Source: a virus
Lineage: Duplodnaviria; Heunggongvirae; Uroviricota; Caudoviricetes
Reading direction: 5' to 3' (one strand)
IMG/VR virus record: IMGVR_UViG_2585427784_000006
DNA length: 11,684 nucleotides
Positions 1-8,785 of the stretch are shown here, piece after piece; within the stretch, counting starts at the first letter, position 1; the number at the start of each line of letters is the position of its first letter. The translations under genes were made by a program, and so were the position numbers. The notes under the pieces are model-generated. The model was not told where the DNA came from, made no database searches, and saw nothing but the letters and a program-made list of their open reading frames with translations.

Positions 1-591
1 ATGTCTCGAATTTTTGCTTACTGTCGGATATCAACGCTGGATCAGACCACCGAAAATCAACGCCGGGAAATCGAAAGTGCAGGTTTTAAAATCAAACCTC
101 AGCAAATAATCGAAGAACACATTAGCGGCTCAGCAGCAACCAGTGAGCGTCCTGGTTTTAACCGGTTGCTTGCTCGCCTGAAATGTGGTGATCAATTGAT
201 TGTGACAAAACTGGATCGCCTTGGTTGTAATGCAATGGATATCAGGAAAACAGTGGAACAACTGACCGAAACAGGTATCAGAGTGCATTGCTTAGCATTG
301 GCTGGCATTGACCTGACCAGTCCAACAGGAAAAATGATGATGCAAGTAATTTCAGCAGTCGCTGAATTTGAACGAGACCTTTTACTTGAACGCACTCATT
401 CCGGGATAGTAAGAGCCCGCGGCGCAGGGAAACGTTTTGGTCGACCACCTGTGTTAAATGAAGAACAGAAACAGGTGGTATTCGAACGAATTAAGTCAGG
501 TGTAAGTATAAGTGCCATTGCCCGGGAATTCAAAACCTCGCGGCAAACCATTTTAAGAGCCAAAGCAAAACTTCAGACACCTGACATATAA
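1..591 (+). CDS. pinQ: Serine recombinase / DNA invertase of the Pin/Gin/Hin family
   Basis: 196-aa ORF, ATG at 1-3, TAA at 589-591. N-terminal catalytic motif YCRISTLDQ (serine nucleophile) and C-terminal helix-turn-helix region typical of small serine invertases. Lies next to a tail fibre assembly gene. Pin paralogues (pinE, pinR, pinQ) are near identical, so the Q suffix rests on the surrounding Qin-type genes. Confidence 0.9.
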
Positions 592-688
592 AAAATAATC
601 TCGGTGTGAGATGCTTTACGTCTTCCAAGCCCCCTTCCTTGCCGTAAATGGAAAGATACATCTAATTATAGAATTTATATGTTTTACC

Positions 689-1264
689 CTACGGCAGTGC
701 TGGCCATTCAATATCCTGTGCAGTTGACGTATCAACACGGTTCAGCAACACCCGATACTTTTTCCAGGCTTCCAGCAATGAGGTTTCTTCCTCCGTTGCG
801 ATTTCCAGATCTACAGCATCCTGAAGTGGCGCAATATGCTCACTGGCTACCTGCATCAGGCTGTTTTTTGTTTCTTCCGCCTCTCGGATCCGGAACAGTT
901 TTTCTGCTTCTGCATCTTTCACCCAGGCTGTGCCGTTCCACTTCTGAAACTCCCCTTCCGGCGATAACCAGGTAACATTTTCCGGTAACGGACCGAGTTC
1001 AGAAATAAATAACGCGTCCCCTGACGCTACGTCATAAACCGTTTTACCCCGATGGTCTTCATCGAGATGCCACGATGCCTTATCACTGTTGAAAACAGCC
1101 ACAAAGCCAGCAGGAATATCTGGTGGTGCAATATCGGTACTGTTTGCTGGCAGACCTGTATGAGGCGGAATATATGCGTCACCTTCACCAATAAATTCAT
1201 TAGTTCCGGCCAGCAGATTATAAATTTTTATGGTCCGTGGTTGTTCACTCATTCTGAATGCCAT
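689..1264 (-). CDS. tfaQ: Tail fibre assembly protein (Tfa family)
   Basis: Track ORF 689..1270 begins at a TTG; first ATG is at 1262-1264, giving 191 aa starting [18 protein letters not shown], which I recognise as lambdoid Tfa. Its start overlaps the end of a short upstream stf-like frame, as at stf/tfa junctions. Confidence 0.85.
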
Positions 1265-1325
1265 TATCAAGGCTGTTCAGATTGCGGATGGCATTCTCAA
1301 GCCCCTTCATCCCACACCTCTTTAC
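1245..1325 (-). pseudogene. Possible 3'-terminal remnant of a side tail fibre (stf) gene
   Basis: A 26-codon open frame ([26 protein letters not shown], stop TGA at 1245-1247) ends 15 nt inside tfa, the overlap expected of stf/tfa. Upstream it is closed by a stop at 1326-1328, directly beside the stop of the preceding head-tail gene. Positional inference only. Confidence 0.3.
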
Positions 1326-1999: not shown

Positions 2000-3985
2000 T
2001 TACGCCGTACATTTCACCAGGCCGCGGTGATCAACTGGCGCAACACCAGCGTCAATACGCACTTTCGTTGTCACGCCATCCACACTGAAGCCCTCCATCT
2101 GATCAATATATGGCGTATCCACACCGTTGAGATAAGCCACTTCAATCGTATCGGAGCCTTTGGACGCAGCCAGGTAGAAGGTGGTCTGGCTGTTATCATC
2201 AAGACGAGGCTCTGCAATAACGGTCGCAAAATCTTTCACCGGGTTAATAATACCGGCGTTAATGTCAGCCCCCTTGACACTTGAGGAGCGAATGACCTGG
2301 TTAGCAACAGACTCCATCGCCGTCGGTACCAGTACGAACGCAGGACGAATATTCAGATGACGCTCACCCTCTTTCTGAACGCGCATCAACTGGCGGGCTT
2401 TATCCAGCGATGCCACGTCCATTGCCGCGCTCTCCAGTACGTTTGCATGTTTCGCTTTATCGAACAGACTTACATTATCTGTGGAGATTTTCGGGTTAGA
2501 CGTCAGAATGGCATAAACCAGATCGGCAATAGTGGATTTCGCCGCACGGCCCAGCTTCATCGGGACATCGGTCAGCATATTCAGATCATCATTGATAATG
2601 GCCTGACGGGTGATACTGAACAGCTCGCCATAGGTCGCCAGTGCAATAGTGGCCTGTTTATCTCCGGTGGTGACGTATTTATATTCTGCCCCTTCACGCA
2701 CCTGACGCAGAGCACTGAAGCCCCCCATACCCACACGATGGGCAATTTTAAAATCAGACAACTGACCTTTCCGCGTCCACTGTTCATAGGTTTCAGGGGC
2801 ATCTTCCCAGCCCTGCAGAATGGCTTTGTTCGCAACATCCAGCAGAATATTACCGAAGTCAGACGTACTGTGTGTGAACGCCGCACCGACCATCTGCATC
2901 GGGTTATAACTGGAAACACCAATACCACGTTCAGTCAGTGACATACGGGCATATTCACGCAGGGTCATCCCGTTGTAGACATTATCACGTTCAGTTTTTT
3001 CAAACCCGGCGCGCGCCATCAGCGCCTGGCGGATCCCGTCCCCCACAAAATTACCGTTACCGGCATAAATATGAGCCGGGGGATTTTTATTGGATGGCGT
3101 GGACTCGCGCCCCATCTCGTTCAACAGCTTTTCGCGGGCCTGCTCCAGCGAACATTCAGGATCGGCAAGACACTGAGCCTGCAACGACTGATAGCCGGTC
3201 ATGGCATCCATAGCTGGCTGAAAATATTCACCGCAGTGCGGACATGGCCAGTACCAGCGGCGGCGGTCACCACGATTGTAAAGGGAAAGAATACCAGTCG
3301 TCGGTGGCGCTTCATGAGGCGACTTACGTCGCCATTTGCTGTCGCAGATGTCACGTCCCGGCGAGCTCTCCACCAGAGTCATCCCGGCGGACATAAATGT
3401 GGTGGTACGTTTTGAGGCCAGGGAGAAACCATCACCCTCGCTGTCGATATTCTCCGGAAAACGGTCGTAATCGGTTAAGGCGACAAACCGGTAATCCGAC
3501 GACGACATAATGTTGACCGAGGGCCAACCAATTTTAAGGAACGAGCCATCCCTGAACGTCTTATCATGGACATTATTGTCGTTACGACGTGGACTCATTC
3601 TTTTCTTTACCGCCGCACTGCTTCTGAACGTTCTGTCGAGGCGCTTTTTAGAATGCTCGCGGGCCTTATCTTCGGTCATCTGCACAACGAGCATGTCCGA
3701 AGGATCGCAAACGATGGTATAGACAATCCATCCATCGATCAGACCAATGGTCTTCCCTGTTCGCGCAGGACCAACAAAAATCACCGCATCGTATTCACGC
3801 GATGCCAGGCAGTTCATGGGCTCAATGATGTAGGGTGTCAGTTCAGGATCCCATGGCACCGAGTTACCAGCCCCCTTGGGAACACGCATGAATTTTTTAA
3901 CAGCCTCCGAAATCGGCATGCGACGTGGTGGGGAAAATCCTGCCGATATGTCCCTTCCCAAATTTCGGGCTGATGAAAAACCCAT
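2000..3985 (-). CDS. Terminase large subunit (lambda gpA family N-terminal ATPase); identity of the C-terminal half uncertain, possibly capsid-derived
   Basis: 661-aa ORF, ATG at 3983-3985 preceded by AGGAGG, TAA at 2000-2002. First ~290 aa align by eye with lambda gpA: Walker A-like VGPARTGKT and a WYWPCPHCGEY ... CLADPEC zinc-finger region. The remaining ~370 aa is Ala/Ser/Thr/Val-rich and looks capsid-like rather than nuclease-like. Confidence 0.7.
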   Translation of the reverse strand: MGFSSARNLGRDISAGFSPPRRMPISEAVKKFMRVPKGAGNSVPWDPELTPYIIEPMNCLASREYDAVIFVGPARTGKTIGLIDGWIVYTIVCDPSDMLVVQMTEDKAREHSKKRLDRTFRSSAAVKKRMSPRRNDNNVHDKTFRDGSFLKIGWPSVNIMSSSDYRFVALTDYDRFPENIDSEGDGFSLASKRTTTFMSAGMTLVESSPGRDICDSKWRRKSPHEAPPTTGILSLYNRGDRRRWYWPCPHCGEYFQPAMDAMTGYQSLQAQCLADPECSLEQAREKLLNEMGRESTPSNKNPPAHIYAGNGNFVGDGIRQALMARAGFEKTERDNVYNGMTLREYARMSLTERGIGVSSYNPMQMVGAAFTHSTSDFGNILLDVANKAILQGWEDAPETYEQWTRKGQLSDFKIAHRVGMGGFSALRQVREGAEYKYVTTGDKQATIALATYGELFSITRQAIINDDLNMLTDVPMKLGRAAKSTIADLVYAILTSNPKISTDNVSLFDKAKHANVLESAAMDVASLDKARQLMRVQKEGERHLNIRPAFVLVPTAMESVANQVIRSSSVKGADINAGIINPVKDFATVIAEPRLDDNSQTTFYLAASKGSDTIEVAYLNGVDTPYIDQMEGFSVDGVTTKVRIDAGVAPVDHRGLVKCTA

Positions 3986-3993
3986 TATTCCTC

Positions 3994-4521
3994 CTAGAGA
4001 CTCTCTCCTTCCTCATCAGGAATTAATTCAGCAGCACAAGCCTCGTAGGATTTTTCCTGAAGAGTGTATCGCAGGTCATCAATGGCCTGCTGTACAACGC
4101 CGACGGCCTGAGGAGTCAGGGCGCAATCGCGTTCAAGAACATCCGGAATTGTCTCCAGAACCTGGACGACAGCCTTTCTCATGGACGAATAGACGATGAC
4201 TACTTCATCAACTGGGATGAGTTTTCGCTGCTCCTTTTCCAGCTTGATCCTTTCATTTTCAGACTGGTACCAGTCCTTTCTCTCTTTCGGCTCCATACGG
4301 GATGGATCATGAACAGAGTCTGCTGCCTCATGCTTCACACTAAACAGGGCGGGCCCGACATGCTGCAGGGCGTAAACGGGGTTCCCCCTGACAGTCGCAG
4401 CCACAGGAGTGTTGGCCGCGAGGAGCCGTTTTTTTACTGTGTCCCGGTGAAGCCCAAAGGCCTCGGCGATTTTAAAAACACTCCAGTAATAAGCATCACC
4501 GATCCCGCTCACATTTGACAT
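3994..4521 (-). CDS. nohA: Terminase small subunit (lambda Nu1-like, NohA family)
   Basis: Two in-frame ATGs, at 4531-4533 and 4519-4521; the second has a GGAG at good spacing and gives MSNVSGIGDAYYWSVFKIAEAFGLHRDTVKKRL, an N-terminal HTH like Nu1. Stop TAG at 3994-3996 lies inside the RBS of the large-subunit gene. A cos site lies ~185 bp upstream. Confidence 0.8.
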   Translation of the reverse strand: MSNVSGIGDAYYWSVFKIAEAFGLHRDTVKKRLLAANTPVAATVRGNPVYALQHVGPALFSVKHEAADSVHDPSRMEPKERKDWYQSENERIKLEKEQRKLIPVDEVVIVYSSMRKAVVQVLETIPDVLERDCALTPQAVGVVQQAIDDLRYTLQEKSYEACAAELIPDEEGESL

Positions 4522-4533
4522 AAGCAACTCCAT

Positions 4534-4724
4534 CTGGCAGGTGAAAATCAGGTTTATTTATATATTTCAATTAATTGCAAACTGGTCTAATGACAGGGAG
4601 AAAAAAATATTGTACAGGTGAAAAGAGAAATAACTTTTAATTATCAATAAATTACCAAACATGCTGCCGCCGCCATGGAAATGCAAAAACTAGTCTTTTT
4701 CCGCGACGCTCCCGCCCCGTGGCA
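4534..4724. other. cos site: cosN-like core plus cosB-like TerS/IHF binding region
   Basis: Minus strand reads CGGGTCCTCCCAGTGGGGGTCCCTGCCACGGGGCGGGAGCGTCGCGG, close to the lambda cos junction as I recall it (...CGGGTCCTTTCCGGTG...TTACGGGGCGGCGACCTCGCGG). The 12-mer aligned to the lambda cohesive end is + 4706..4717. Between it and terS: IHF-consensus TATCAATAAATTA at 4642-4654 and two exact direct repeats CAGGTGAAAA at 4538-4547 and 4615-4624. Confidence 0.7.
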
Positions 4725-5083
4725 GGGACCCCCACTGGGAGGACCCGACAGCCTGACAACCGTGACGAGCATCTGAAACAGAGCTTTACATAATGGCATG
4801 GGGATAATTCAGAAGGACATCACAGCATGCCCACACAAATTAGTGTGAGTGTCCTGTTTCTTACTACGCGCAGGACTGACGAGCATGAGGGGAAAATACG
4901 CGAACCGAAATGCCTTATCTTCAGAAATGCAGCCGGCATCCGAACTGGACGATATTGTAAATTCACCTAAATACGAGGCATTGCTGTAGTTGAATTGCAG
5001 TACTGTATTAGCCTTACAGTGACAGAATACGATATTGACTCTGTCACTTGTGAAATGGTCAGAATGGTTAGCAGTTATGGTGA

Positions 5084-5290
5084 TCAGTCAACCACCAGGG
5101 AATAATCCTTCGTATTCTTATCGTGCTTTACTAACGCGGCCTCAATTGCCCTGAATGCTTCCAGAGATACTTGATGTTCTATACATGCAATTACAACATC
5201 CGGGTAACCCATCGAAATGGTGCTATTAAGCATAGTTTTTACACGAACCTGCTCCTGGGAGGGGGCATCAGTGTATTGATCTTTATGCAT
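5084..5290 (-). CDS. Conserved lambdoid right-arm small protein (homologue of the ~68-aa ORF near the lambda right end)
   Basis: 68-aa ORF, ATG at 5288-5290 with GGAG upstream, TGA at 5084-5086. Protein (..[46 protein letters not shown]) and the first ~150 bp downstream closely match the lambda right-end sequence as I recall it. Confidence 0.6.
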
Positions 5291-5585
5291 TTTGTCGCTC
5301 CATTCGTTTGCTCTTCACTTGCGGCTAAAAATATAACGTCAAATCACTCAGCATGAAAGAGTGAAAGTTTCAGCGCGTTTCCCTTACATAATCTGTCGTT
5401 TGTATTCTCTTCAGGCATACCGGAAAGACTAGGTATTGTCACACAACCAATACCATCGACAATCGAGATTTATATCTATTCGGTAATGTTTAAATATAAC
5501 AAAACCCCGTAAAAACGAGGTTTATGGGTAATTTGTATTGTTGAATAGCATCTGATGAGAAATTGATGCTAATACTATAAACATG

Positions 5586-5759
5586 CTAGATTAAATCAAT
5601 CTTGATATCATAGCTTTCAAGACCAGTCATTTTTTCCCGTGCAGTAAACTGGATACTGGTAACTTCTTTCCCGGTCTTTTTCTTAAGCTCAATGATTTTT
5701 TTTGTTATATATTCAGAAATATCTGCTTCTGTTTTTGTTTTTAACTCTTCAATGTTCAT
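5586..5759 (-). CDS. gnsB: GnsA/GnsB family protein
   Basis: Track ORF 5586..5852 has an upstream extension; ATG at 5757-5759 after AGAGGAA gives 57 aa MNIEELKTKTEADISEYITKKIIELKKKTGKEVTSIQFTAREKMTGLESYDIKIDLI, matching GnsA/GnsB. Confidence 0.85.
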   Translation of the reverse strand: MNIEELKTKTEADISEYITKKIIELKKKTGKEVTSIQFTAREKMTGLESYDIKIDLI

Positions 5760-5931
5760 CATTTCCTCTTTTAGTCTGTTATGACTGTCCTGGTACACAG
5801 TAGTGTCAATTATATGGAGCAAACGTATAAAAGATAAGATGAAACATCGCAATAATCAACATACGACGGTCTAAATTTCACACAAACAGATAAAGATGAT
5901 TATCATTTATTATCAATGCATTAGAATCAAA

Positions 5932-6162
5932 TCAATTCAAGAGTCTCATTGCTGCTTCCAGAATTTCTTCTGAAGTTACATGTCGATCCGCTGCTACATA
6001 AATGACTTTATGATCTCCGGTCAGAGATGGAAACCCTGCGGCCATTACAGTAAGGTATGTTTTTTCGCCATTTGGATATTCACGCATGATGGTGTTAACT
6101 CCAGTCATCGCTGGCACTACCACTGCTGGTTCAGAGTTAAAAAAAACTATGATTTTTTTCAT
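5932..6162 (-). CDS. ynfN: Small protein, YmcE/YnfN-like (cold-shock-associated partner of gns genes)
   Basis: Track ORF 5932..6204 begins at a TTG; ATG at 6160-6162 gives 76 aa starting MKKIIVFFNSEPAVV. Sits between cspI and gnsB as ynfN does in Qin. Symbol assigned from memory of length and synteny; weak RBS. Confidence 0.45.
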   Translation of the reverse strand: MKKIIVFFNSEPAVVVPAMTGVNTIMREYPNGEKTYLTVMAAGFPSLTGDHKVIYVAADRHVTSEEILEAAMRLLN

Positions 6163-6433
6163 GATGTTACCGTAGTATGTGAGTATCCATCGAATAGATA
6201 CCAAGCAAAAAAGCTCCCGAAGGAGCCTTCATTTTCACTTTTTTAAATCCAACGACAGACGGCTGGCATTTAAGTATTGTGAAATATTATCAAATGTAAT
6301 CATCATTGATTTACAAAAGATACATTTTGCCCCGAAAGGATTCATGTCAGAAACATCAAAAGATGATGTTCTATACTGGGAACCATGACAACACGGGCAT
6401 CTAAAGTGAATATGGTTTGTAATATTGTCTACC

Positions 6434-6646
6434 TCAAAGCGCCACTACATGAACAGCGGCAGGACCTTTAGGTCCGTTCTCAATACCAAATTCAACTTCC
6501 TGATTCTCAGTTAATGTTTTGAAATCGTTGCTCTGAATTGCTGAGAAATGGACAAACACATCTTTGCTGCCATCTTTCGGCGTGATGAAACCAAAACCTT
6601 TTTCAGGGTTAAACCATTTCACTAAACCAGTCATTTTGTTAGACAT
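6434..6646 (-). CDS. cspI: Cold shock protein (CspA family)
   Basis: 70-aa [41 protein letters not shown]... with RNP1 (KGFGFI) and RNP2 (VFVHF) motifs. ATG at 6644-6646 in an AAAAGGTAATAAT-ATG context typical of cspA-family genes. Sequence matches my memory of CspI. Confidence 0.9.
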
Positions 6647-7009
6647 AATTATTACCTTTTGAAGAAATTAGCCCTTGGGCAGAATGGTCCGAAAAAAAAT
6701 ATCAGAGAGAAAAACCAACAAGGAAATCTCAAGAGGTACAAATAATAAAATTATAACAATGACTGCTTCAGATAAATTTGTAACAAACCAGAACACCATT
6801 AACGCATGATTAACCACCCATAGCAAGGATTACTTTTGTAAAGAAAAAAACAGCAATGAAAGAATAGCTTTATTTATTAATAATAACGTGTCATTCTGAT
6901 TAAGACCTTTTATCTTACCCTTAAGATTTCAGGAATTTTGGCTCATGGAAGAGTCCTTTTTATTTAAATTTTACATTCCGCGATGTAAATGTTCCGATTT
7001 AATATTACC

Positions 7010-8033
<1,024 letters not shown>

Positions 8034-8037
<4 letters not shown>

Positions 8038-8345
8038 ATATATTTATGATGAGGACGCTCGTGCTTATTGGCAGGATTTTCAATCTTAAAGGAGTACTGA
8101 TGCTGCAGATAAGACTCAACTTTTTCTGACAATTTTTCTGCTACTTCCAGGAAGACTTGCCGGACGCTCCTTCTGGCTGCTGCCTCATAAAACTCCAGCG
8201 CAGCTCCTTCAACACGGTCCATGGCGACATCCAGGTCAAAAATTTCACCGTCAAAGCGTTCCTTGTCCTGTAAGGCTACAGTTACCGTAACTTTATTCTC
8301 AAAATTACGGACTCCTTTCACAACCAGTTCATAGTCTTGAGTCAT
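8034..8345 (-). CDS. ydfR: YdfR-family protein of unknown function, encoded between holin and endolysin
   Basis: 103-aa ORF MTQDYELVVKGVRNFENKVTV..., ATG at 8343-8345 preceded by GAGGAGAG, stop overlapping the endolysin start. Matches my memory of K-12 YdfR. Confidence 0.75.
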
Positions 8346-8349
8346 TGGA

Positions 8350-8565
8350 TTACTCTCCTCTCGCAGCCTTACGCCTGTCTTCTTTAATCTTGAAATAAAG
8401 ATTTGTCAGATACGTCAGCAGGCCAAAAACCAGGCTACCCAGCACACCGATTGCAGCCCACTGTGACGGAGTTACTTTATCGAGTAACTGCAATGCCCAG
8501 AAACCAGCATTCCCCGCCGATGTGCCATAGGCAACACCTGTTGTTAACTTATCCATTGATTTCAT
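8350..8565 (-). CDS. essQ: Class II holin (S21-like pinholin)
   Basis: Track ORF 8350..8643 has an upstream extension; ATG at 8563-8565 preceded by GGTGAGGA gives 71 aa [71 protein letters not shown] with two transmembrane segments and a basic C-terminus. Pairs with the SAR endolysin. Confidence 0.85.
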
Positions 8566-8785
8566 ATCCTCACCCCGATGTACACGGATGGTGCAATATG
8601 TTTGAAAAAGATCGGAGTCTACGGGGTAGTTTTGACAGCACACGTTGTTCTCAACGGCGCTAAAGAAACATACACATTAAAAATGTGAGTAATTATTTTG
8701 AAAGAAAGTCATATATAAAATAATAATACGAGAAATGTTTTCATATTTAGTGTACTGTATACGGCCATTTATACAGGAAAAGCCT

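Follow-up and report, generated by a model that had tools for sequence, protein, structure and literature searches.

The subject of this analysis is a cohesive-end (cos) site in an 11,684-nucleotide stretch of viral DNA, IMG/VR record IMGVR_UViG_2585427784_000006, which at its full length is referred to as the window. Positions 4534-4746, read on the minus strand, very probably constitute a complete lambda-type cos, with cosQ, cosN and cosB, that belongs to the lineage of phages cdtI, Tritos and HannyBb and is located in a heavily deleted Qin-type prophage. The cosN segment occupies 4701..4722 of the minus strand and reads CCACG / GGGCGGGAGCGT / CGCGG. The nicks are predicted from the sequence to fall at 4718/4717 on the minus strand, which is the top strand of the phage, and at 4706/4705 on the plus strand. 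The predicted product is a 12-nt 5' overhang at 4706-4717, GGGCGGGAGCGT on the minus strand. A first-pass annotation of this DNA had reported a match to the lambda cos junction on the minus strand at 16 of 22 positions, with an altered 12-nt core, and strand, coordinates, match and core were all reproduced.

Phage genome ends and the cosN-cosQ region

The genome ends of related phages coincide with the predicted cosN. The records of cdtI (AB285204) and Tritos (OV696610, a linear record), which are independently deposited genomes, both begin with GGGCGGGAGCGT at the equivalent of 4717, and the Tritos record ends with ...CCTGCCACG (...CCACG), the equivalent of 4726..4718. The window therefore corresponds to the joined form of those genome ends, and the earlier proposal of a lambda-like cos was borne out. 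Phage HannyBb (PP925841) was 99.6% identical to the window over 4400-4900. The record of Hafnia phage yong2 opens at CGCGG, the equivalent of 4705, that is, at the other nick. For the distant phage Cr-LKS3, the authors report 5' cohesive ends that start with GGGC and are preceded by CG, and two bases flanking the cos site on each side are as in lambda (PMC9303873). The small and large terminase subunits (TerS and TerL) of Cr-LKS3 belong to the same families as those of the window.

Alignment to the lambda cos, one of the checks named by the first-pass annotation, showed similarity beyond chance. When anchored on the nick, the match to lambda ...TTACG/GGGCGGCGACCT/CGCGG was 16/22, a value obtained in four neighbouring registers, and over ACG..CGCGG it was 16/20. 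The window was shuffled 500 times with a first-order Markov model over its 11.7 kb, and a 16/20 match to the lambda cosN was found on either strand in two of the shuffles. The overhang shares eight of its 12 bases with that of lambda, and the mismatches, at bases 7, 8, 9 and 11, all lie within bases 7-12. The flank pattern CACG-N12-CGCGG occurs once in the window, so that a search with this pattern gave no second cos. A lambda-like cos has been defined, as a working definition, by a 12-base 5' extension like that of lambda, differences that fall mainly in bases 7-12 and a conserved cosQ (PMC4669245). Judged by its sequence, the window site is a cos of this kind.

Conservation was evaluated in 77 close relatives, which are viral or prophage contigs with a TerS at least 99% identical to that of the window, and in orthologous loci of 12 other genera, where TerS is 38-86% identical in the best tblastn segment. 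Among the close relatives, cosQ, cosN and the integration host factor (IHF) site stand out as conserved islands, whereas the sequences between and upstream of them are highly polymorphic. The region from -8 to +23 around cosN was nearly invariant. The cosN flanks are kept in the 12 genera and the inner 12 nt vary. Furthermore, the layout of the site is free of insertions and deletions in most of these genera, from Scandinavium to Pasteurella. The shared order is GGGTCCT or AAAGGTACTCC, CCACG-N12-CGCGG, the GGCTAGTTTT block, a CAGCAGCAGGTG-type segment and an IHF consensus at +64. Partial matches to 4400-4900 were present in 2050 of 5426 complete Escherichia coli genomes; in 655 of these the matches extend over 80% or more of the interval.

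The cosQ-like heptamer GGGTCCT is located at 4740..4746 on the minus strand and is an exact copy of lambda 48473-48479 (NC_001416). Its distance upstream from the top-strand nick is 23-29 nt, 1 nt less than in lambda (24-30 nt), so that a conserved 7-bp cosQ is present about 17-30 bp upstream of cosN. This 7-bp element is highly conserved among lambda-like phages (Feiss 2015, PMC4669245). The heptamer occurs only twice in the window, it is nearly invariant in the 77 close relatives amid highly polymorphic flanks, and its position is filled by GGGTCCT or AAAGGTACTCC in other genera.

A conserved block adjoins cosN on the other side (4675..4700, minus strand; phage bases 18-43; AAAAAGACTAGTTTTTGCATTTCCAT). 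Its (A/G)AAACGGCTAGTTTT..ATTT.CAT core is kept in the 12 genera and in phages LLS, yong2, mEp460 and Gifsy-2. Window position 4694, which is phage base 24 and falls within the GGCTAG block by cosN, is an A and not a G. Of the 77 close relatives, 58 have the G, as do all three phage isolates (cdtI, Tritos and HannyBb), the other 12 genera, LLS, yong2, Gifsy-2 and lambda. The A allele was found in 19 of the 77 contigs, and 18 of these have a TerL that is intact over the deletion point of the window; for this reason, the A allele was rejected as a mark of dead prophages. Besides base 24, the cos region departs from both Tritos and HannyBb at a single base, phage position 120.

Several irregularities of annotation and spacing were seen at cosN. 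A 51-residue open reading frame (ORF) at 4644-4799 of the minus strand crosses both cosN and cosQ, and its counterparts carry a hypothetical-protein annotation in the records of HannyBb and mEp460_ev081. Such cosN-spanning ORFs in phage records are probably false calls and not genes. In Gifsy-2 (NC_010393, around 18000-18030), CCACG and CGCGG are separated by 14 nt instead of 12. The mEp460_4F5 record begins with CCACGGGGCGGGAGCGCGG and is 3 nt short relative to its relatives, which may be an artefact of assembly over the cohesive ends.

cosB: the predicted IHF site and candidate TerS sites

The predicted IHF site of cosB, the equivalent of I1, is located at 4642..4654 on the plus strand (TATCAATAAATTA, phage bases 64-76) and matches the consensus WATCAANNNNTTR perfectly. 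The window holds two perfect matches to this consensus compared with 0.77 expected. The site was invariant among the 77 close relatives. A perfect consensus also starts from +64 in Scandinavium, two species of Providencia, Proteus and Xenorhabdus, and the consensus with one mismatch is found in Edwardsiella and Phytobacter. The IHF-consensus site that had been noted at 4642-4654 is thus a perfect match with the added support of conservation. Promoter-like, terminator-like and Rfam elements were sought in the cos region and none was found.

Two exact copies of the 10-mer CAGGTGAAAA are present on the plus strand. Copy a, at 4615..4624 (TTTTCACCTG on the phage strand, bases 94-103), is at an R2-like position, and copy c, at 4538..4547 (phage bases 171-180), is at an R1-like position, 17 nt before the conserved terS ATG. 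The two direct repeats had been described earlier; both are exact, and a pattern search of the window returned no further copy. An exact direct repeat of at least 10 nt appeared in 5.7% of Markov-shuffled 191-nt regions, which is weak evidence when taken alone, and a general repeat scan did not list the 10-mer pair, only weak families of 9-13 nt. However, both 10-mers carry CACCTG, at +98 and +175, and these are positions at which hexamers are conserved across genera. Specifically, [C/G]AGGTG or CACCTG is found at +97/98 in Yersinia, Rahnella, Rouxiella, Providencia and Proteus, and CACCTG at +173/174 in seven other genera. This coincidence gives comparative support to the 10-mers as TerS sites. 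Within the 77 close relatives, copy c was nearly invariant and copy a was polymorphic at two positions in 10-11 contigs.

The suggestion that the repeats are TerS-binding R elements of cosB therefore stood in part. The R2- and R1-like positions recur across genera, but copy a varies and the R3 position is occupied by a different sequence. The comparison thus partly supports the CAGGTGAAAA copies as candidate R2- and R1-like TerS sites, though not as the whole of cosB. Hexamers of the CAGGTG/CACCTG/GAGGTG/CACCTC type recur at +55, +98, +125 and +174 in other genera. At the third of these positions, a CACCTC hexamer begins at +125 in Providencia, Proteus and Xenorhabdus, and the window has a weak, degenerate element, recognised by position only, at 4586..4596 on the minus strand (CTGTCATTAGA, phage bases 122-132). 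In a Scandinavium metagenome-assembled genome, the closest relative outside E. coli (TerS 86% identical), CG(A/C)CTG takes the place of CACCTG at both repeat positions. This single case hints at a concerted shift of both sites together with TerS.

The segment at 4659..4674 on the minus strand (GGCGGCGGCAGCATGT, phage bases 44-59) is a candidate for TerS specificity. In lambda, R3 spans bp 50-65 and is the critical R position (PMC9026076). The window segment lies at this position, and the similarity between the two subfamilies of DUF1441 TerS, the family of the window protein, stops at 4659-4674; it is therefore proposed as the likely main determinant of TerS specificity. Its counterparts are CCGTCATCACCAC in mEp460, GGGTCATCATCATCAT in LLS and GTCAGCAGCAGGTG in Yersinia and Providencia. 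Compared with the scheme of three R sites (R3-I1-R2-R1, with R2 inverted), the window has two exact copies in the same orientation and the unrelated GGCGGCGGCAGCATGT at the R3 position.

The mEp460-type phages have the identical overhang GGGCGGGAGCGT, and cosQ and bases 13-43 in common with the window; the identity is 98% from 4678 upward. However, their TerS is about 42% identical and their cosB is different, with the break at the R3 position. A recombination joint at approximately base 44 is suggested because cosQ, cosN and bases 13-43 are common to the two types whereas TerS and cosB are not. The cosB of mEp460_ev081 (LR597641) contains a tandem duplication of about 100 bp (GGCTAGTTTTTGAAATTTCATCCGTCATCACCAC...TTGTTTTTTGT, two copies) within the first ~240 nt downstream of cosN in phage orientation.

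A mechanism can be proposed by analogy with lambda (PMC4669245, PMC9026076). TerS would bind cosB, aided by an IHF-induced bend at 4642-4654. A gpA-family TerL would then introduce nicks 12 nt apart, at 4718/4717 and 4706/4705, to generate the 5' overhang GGGCGGGAGCGT. Packaging would proceed toward terS, in the direction of decreasing window coordinates, and GGGTCCT (cosQ) together with cosN would serve termination at the end of the genome. The site resident in the window could act only as a substrate for the terminase of a related phage.

Terminase genes and prophage setting

The terS gene (3994..4521, minus strand) is intact and encodes a DUF1441 protein (Pfam PF07278, E 1.7e-44). Its longest ORF starts at 4533, and the start that is conserved and used by RefSeq is 4521. 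From the first base of the predicted overhang, 4717, it is 184 nt to the ATG at 4533 and 196 nt to that at 4521, in agreement with the earlier estimate that the cos is about 185 bp upstream of terS; the lambda Nu1 start is base 191. The protein is 100% identical to the TerS of HannyBb, Tritos and cdtI. No Pfam match of TerS to Phage_Nu1 (PF07471) was obtained, BLASTP against Nu1 gave an E value of 4.6, and searches of PDB sequences with the single sequence and with a profile returned no Nu1 match. In an AlphaFold model from a 36-sequence alignment (predicted local distance difference test, pLDDT, 84), the N terminus forms a MerR-like winged helix-turn-helix and long helices come after it. The modelled fold thus has the DNA-binding domain expected of a Nu1-type small terminase and, after it, a helical part that would serve oligomerisation and TerL binding.

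The cos lies upstream of a terS-terL pair with a large terminase of the gpA family: a 627-column alignment of the intact 699-residue TerL with lambda gpA has 24% identity (E 5e-22). In the window, terL is replaced by a chimeric ORF of 661 residues at 2000..3985 on the minus strand, which begins with TerL residues 1-264 and continues with the C-terminal ~397 residues of a ClpP-like protease/major capsid fusion protein. The junction, at approximately 3192/3193, is in frame at TerL codon 264. Pfam assigned residues 40-263 of the chimera to GpA_ATPase (profile positions 2-212 of 247) and residues 363-658 to Phage_capsid_4. The intact prophage that strain MEI1O2-23 carries (CM149577) has 3801 bp here that the window lacks, and this DNA encodes the TerL nuclease, a DUF6148 protein, the portal and the protease. 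A full-length TerL with nuclease and portal-docking regions is thus lacking; 264 of the 699 residues are left. A search of 5426 complete E. coli genomes gave no contiguous match to the TerL-capsid junction, and it was likewise missing from 81 viral contigs.

A second deletion junction was located at approximately 1265-1271, where the tail genes are lost. To its left are the C-terminal part of a tail-fibre gene, tfaQ and pinQ of Qin, and to its right the end of a tail gene followed by cdtI-type head-tail genes (1322-1597 and 1590-1913). With TerL reduced to a deletion fusion and the nuclease, the portal, the protease, most of the capsid gene and the tail genes lost, only cos and terS are intact in the window, and the prophage can neither cut nor package itself. 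The first-pass annotation had suspected a possibly defective terminase and a prophage that is not self-packaging; both were confirmed, and the damage, including the loss of the nuclease domain, the portal and the protease in the 3801-bp deletion, is worse than was suspected.

The window aligns with the locus of the Qin-type cryptic prophage of E. coli. Its gene order is pinQ (1-591, plus strand), tfaQ, tail and head remnants, the terL fragment, terS, a non-coding gap, gnsB/ynfN/cspI, the lysis genes rzpQ/rrrQ/ydfR/ess (7010-8643), cspB and ydfT. Window positions 1-1271 and 3192-11684 align to the Qin-type locus of strain H6, and the order in K-12 Qin is the same. The gene order characteristic of Qin, pinQ-tfaQ ... 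gnsB-ynfN-cspI-rzpQ-rrrQ-ydfR-ess-cspB-cspF-ydfT next to ydfK/ydfJ, was recovered, but the packaging module is not of the K-12 Qin type, which consists of nohA and a cos identical to that of lambda. Excision and replication functions lie outside the window. An Rfam match to IS009 (RF02111, 226.7 bits) was found at 723-921 (minus strand) in the tfaQ region, and two leaders of the cspA thermoregulator type (RF01766) at 6407-6792 and 9304-9696 (minus strand) belong, by position, to cspI and cspB. A recurring pattern was also observed, in which cryptic prophages with deletion endpoints of their own keep a cos and an intact terS. A 5' terL stub is also kept in the window, in strain H6 and in DLP12 (aaaD), and none is annotated after nohA in K-12 Qin.

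Alternative readings and comparison with known systems

Several points weigh against the assignment of a complete lambda-type cos. TerS has no significant sequence similarity to Nu1, which is also absent from the structural matches. Lambda has three R sequences of one kind, with R2 inverted; the site departs from this rule and fits the scheme only loosely. The A at 4694 might impair the site. The termini of the deposited records may have been set by analogy, and those of LLS were explicitly inferred (PMC12315714). A literature search for the 12-mer produced no relevant paper, only two unrelated eukaryotic ones, no experiment on this cos allele was found in the searchable literature, and a search for phage Tritos found no paper.

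The region could be an inert fossil, that is, a cos present by descent that is never cut in this host owing to the A at base 24, the absence of a cognate helper or both, and that persists only because no deletion has so far removed it. Such a state would be in keeping with the departure of 4694 from an otherwise universally conserved base, with the two or more large deletions in the surrounding prophage and with the A allele being in no phage isolate of the collections. However, this account and the passive persistence it entails are unlikely. The A allele is carried by 19 of the 77 contigs and appears to circulate in prophages that are not obviously dead, since 18 of the 19 keep TerL intact at the point of the deletion. 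Moreover, phage position 120 is the one further base that differs from both Tritos and HannyBb, and TerS is 100% identical to that of the isolates. A fortuitous resemblance to lambda in what would be a plain non-coding leader of the terS operon can be dismissed for practical purposes. Although the 10-mer repeat is only weakly significant by itself (5.7%) and a single match to the IHF consensus is not rare, the 16/20 match, seen in 2/500 shuffles, falls exactly where phage records begin and end, the architecture extends across genera and the region has no promoter-like site. The record termini and the conservation in the 12 genera and 77 relatives effectively refute a chance origin.

It was also considered whether cos, TerS and the N-terminal TerL fragment might form a selected module, for packaging interference by a decoy or by sequestration of subunits, or for mobilising adjacent DNA. 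Independent deletions have kept cos, terS and the 5' end of terL in the window, in H6 and in DLP12 of K-12 (nohD and aaaD) and, more loosely, in K-12 Qin (cos and nohA, with no terL fragment annotated). In addition, TerS is undecayed, and the N terminus of lambda TerL binds TerS. Nevertheless, shared ancestry or neutral deletion endpoints could give the same pattern, and the exact fusion had a contiguous match in none of the 5426 complete E. coli genomes or 81 viral contigs, which indicates a recent private event and not a maintained design; selection of this kind is highly improbable. A further reading takes the cos as modular and more than a fossil. With the joint at approximately base 44, the chromosomal copy, accompanied by an intact TerS and a TerL stump able to bind it, would serve several lineages as a point of termination or recombination, as a decoy against their packaging, or as a one-way start for packaging the adjoining chromosome on the pinQ-ydfK-ydfJ side, a reading that is quite unlikely. 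A cos of a hijacker of the phage-inducible chromosomal island type was rejected, as the downstream gene is a phage-identical TerS that is not Rpp-like and the architecture is cosB-like.

Use of the lambda-type cos in trans by a related phage, as the first-pass annotation had envisaged, is plausible because cognate phages exist and there is a precedent. In E. coli O157 Sakai, prophage Sp4, which has no intact terminase, was packaged, an outcome that the authors ascribe to Sp14, a co-resident prophage whose cos is the same (PMC2669165). If it is not excised, one chromosomal cos would support initiation only and would not yield a transmissible prophage. Recombinant phages can arise when packaging starts at a prophage cos and a crossover follows (Feiss et al., PMC4669245). 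The host strain can produce no particles from this prophage, yet it carries a start signal for packaging that a related phage could use. The site thus bears on recombination between prophages and on the possible mobilisation of adjacent DNA.

The window site is a further case of the known lambda-like cos, correctly recognised, and the identical allele is already present at the ends of deposited phage genomes. The current view of lambda-type packaging is unchanged. The new content is modest and consists of a comparative map of cosB for the DUF1441 terminases and of the mosaic joint at the R3 position. For annotation, the analysis fixes the cos and the likely cohesive end GGGCGGGAGCGT of a widespread E. 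coli prophage lineage. Furthermore, the cosB map offers defined DNA segments as candidate targets of TerS at a time when DUF1441 is still described in Pfam as of "unknown function".

The site resembles that of lambda in its 12-nt overhang with a common left half, GGGCGG, in the nick flanks ACG/ and /CGCGG, and in the exact GGGTCCT with a 1-nt offset. The nick is about 65-75 bp away from an IHF site, the start of terS is approximately 185-197 bp downstream compared with 191 in lambda, and a gpA-family terL is next. Unlike lambda, it differs at overhang bases 7, 8, 9 and 11, its TerS is a DUF1441 protein and not Nu1, and its cosB is unrelated to the lambda R sites, with only two exact repeats, which share one orientation and leave the R3 position without a copy. 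The resemblance to cdtI, Tritos and HannyBb is far closer, with TerS 100% and the cos region 98.7-99.6% identical, and the record termini of cdtI and Tritos coincide with the window cosN. However, these phages have a full-length TerL (699 residues in the cdtI record), and a portal is annotated in cdtI and Tritos, whereas the window has the TerL-capsid fusion and the A at base 24.

The Gifsy-type and mEp213/LLS-type phages share the TerS and TerL families, the CCACG..CGCGG flanks and the GGCT(A/G)(G/A)TTTT block, but their TerS is about 40% identical and the sequences diverge from approximately phage base 44 on. The literature already places Gifsy-1 with the phages that have a lambda-like cos; its overhang differs at bases 8, 9 and 11, and its cosB has the order R3-I1-R2-R1 (PMC4669245, PMC9026076). 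Gifsy-2, a close relative of Gifsy-1, encodes a DUF1441 TerS. In contrast to the prophage of the window, which has lost structural genes, Sp4 excises and is amplified, and its defect is the insertion of an insertion sequence in nu1. The window shares its chromosomal locus and its flanking genes with K-12 Qin, and both Qin and DLP12 of K-12 have likewise kept cos and terS while the morphogenesis genes were deleted. However, the K-12 prophages carry GGGCGGCGACCT, R sites of the lambda type and the Nu1 homologues nohA and nohD, whereas the window carries the alternative module of the DUF1441/cdtI type.

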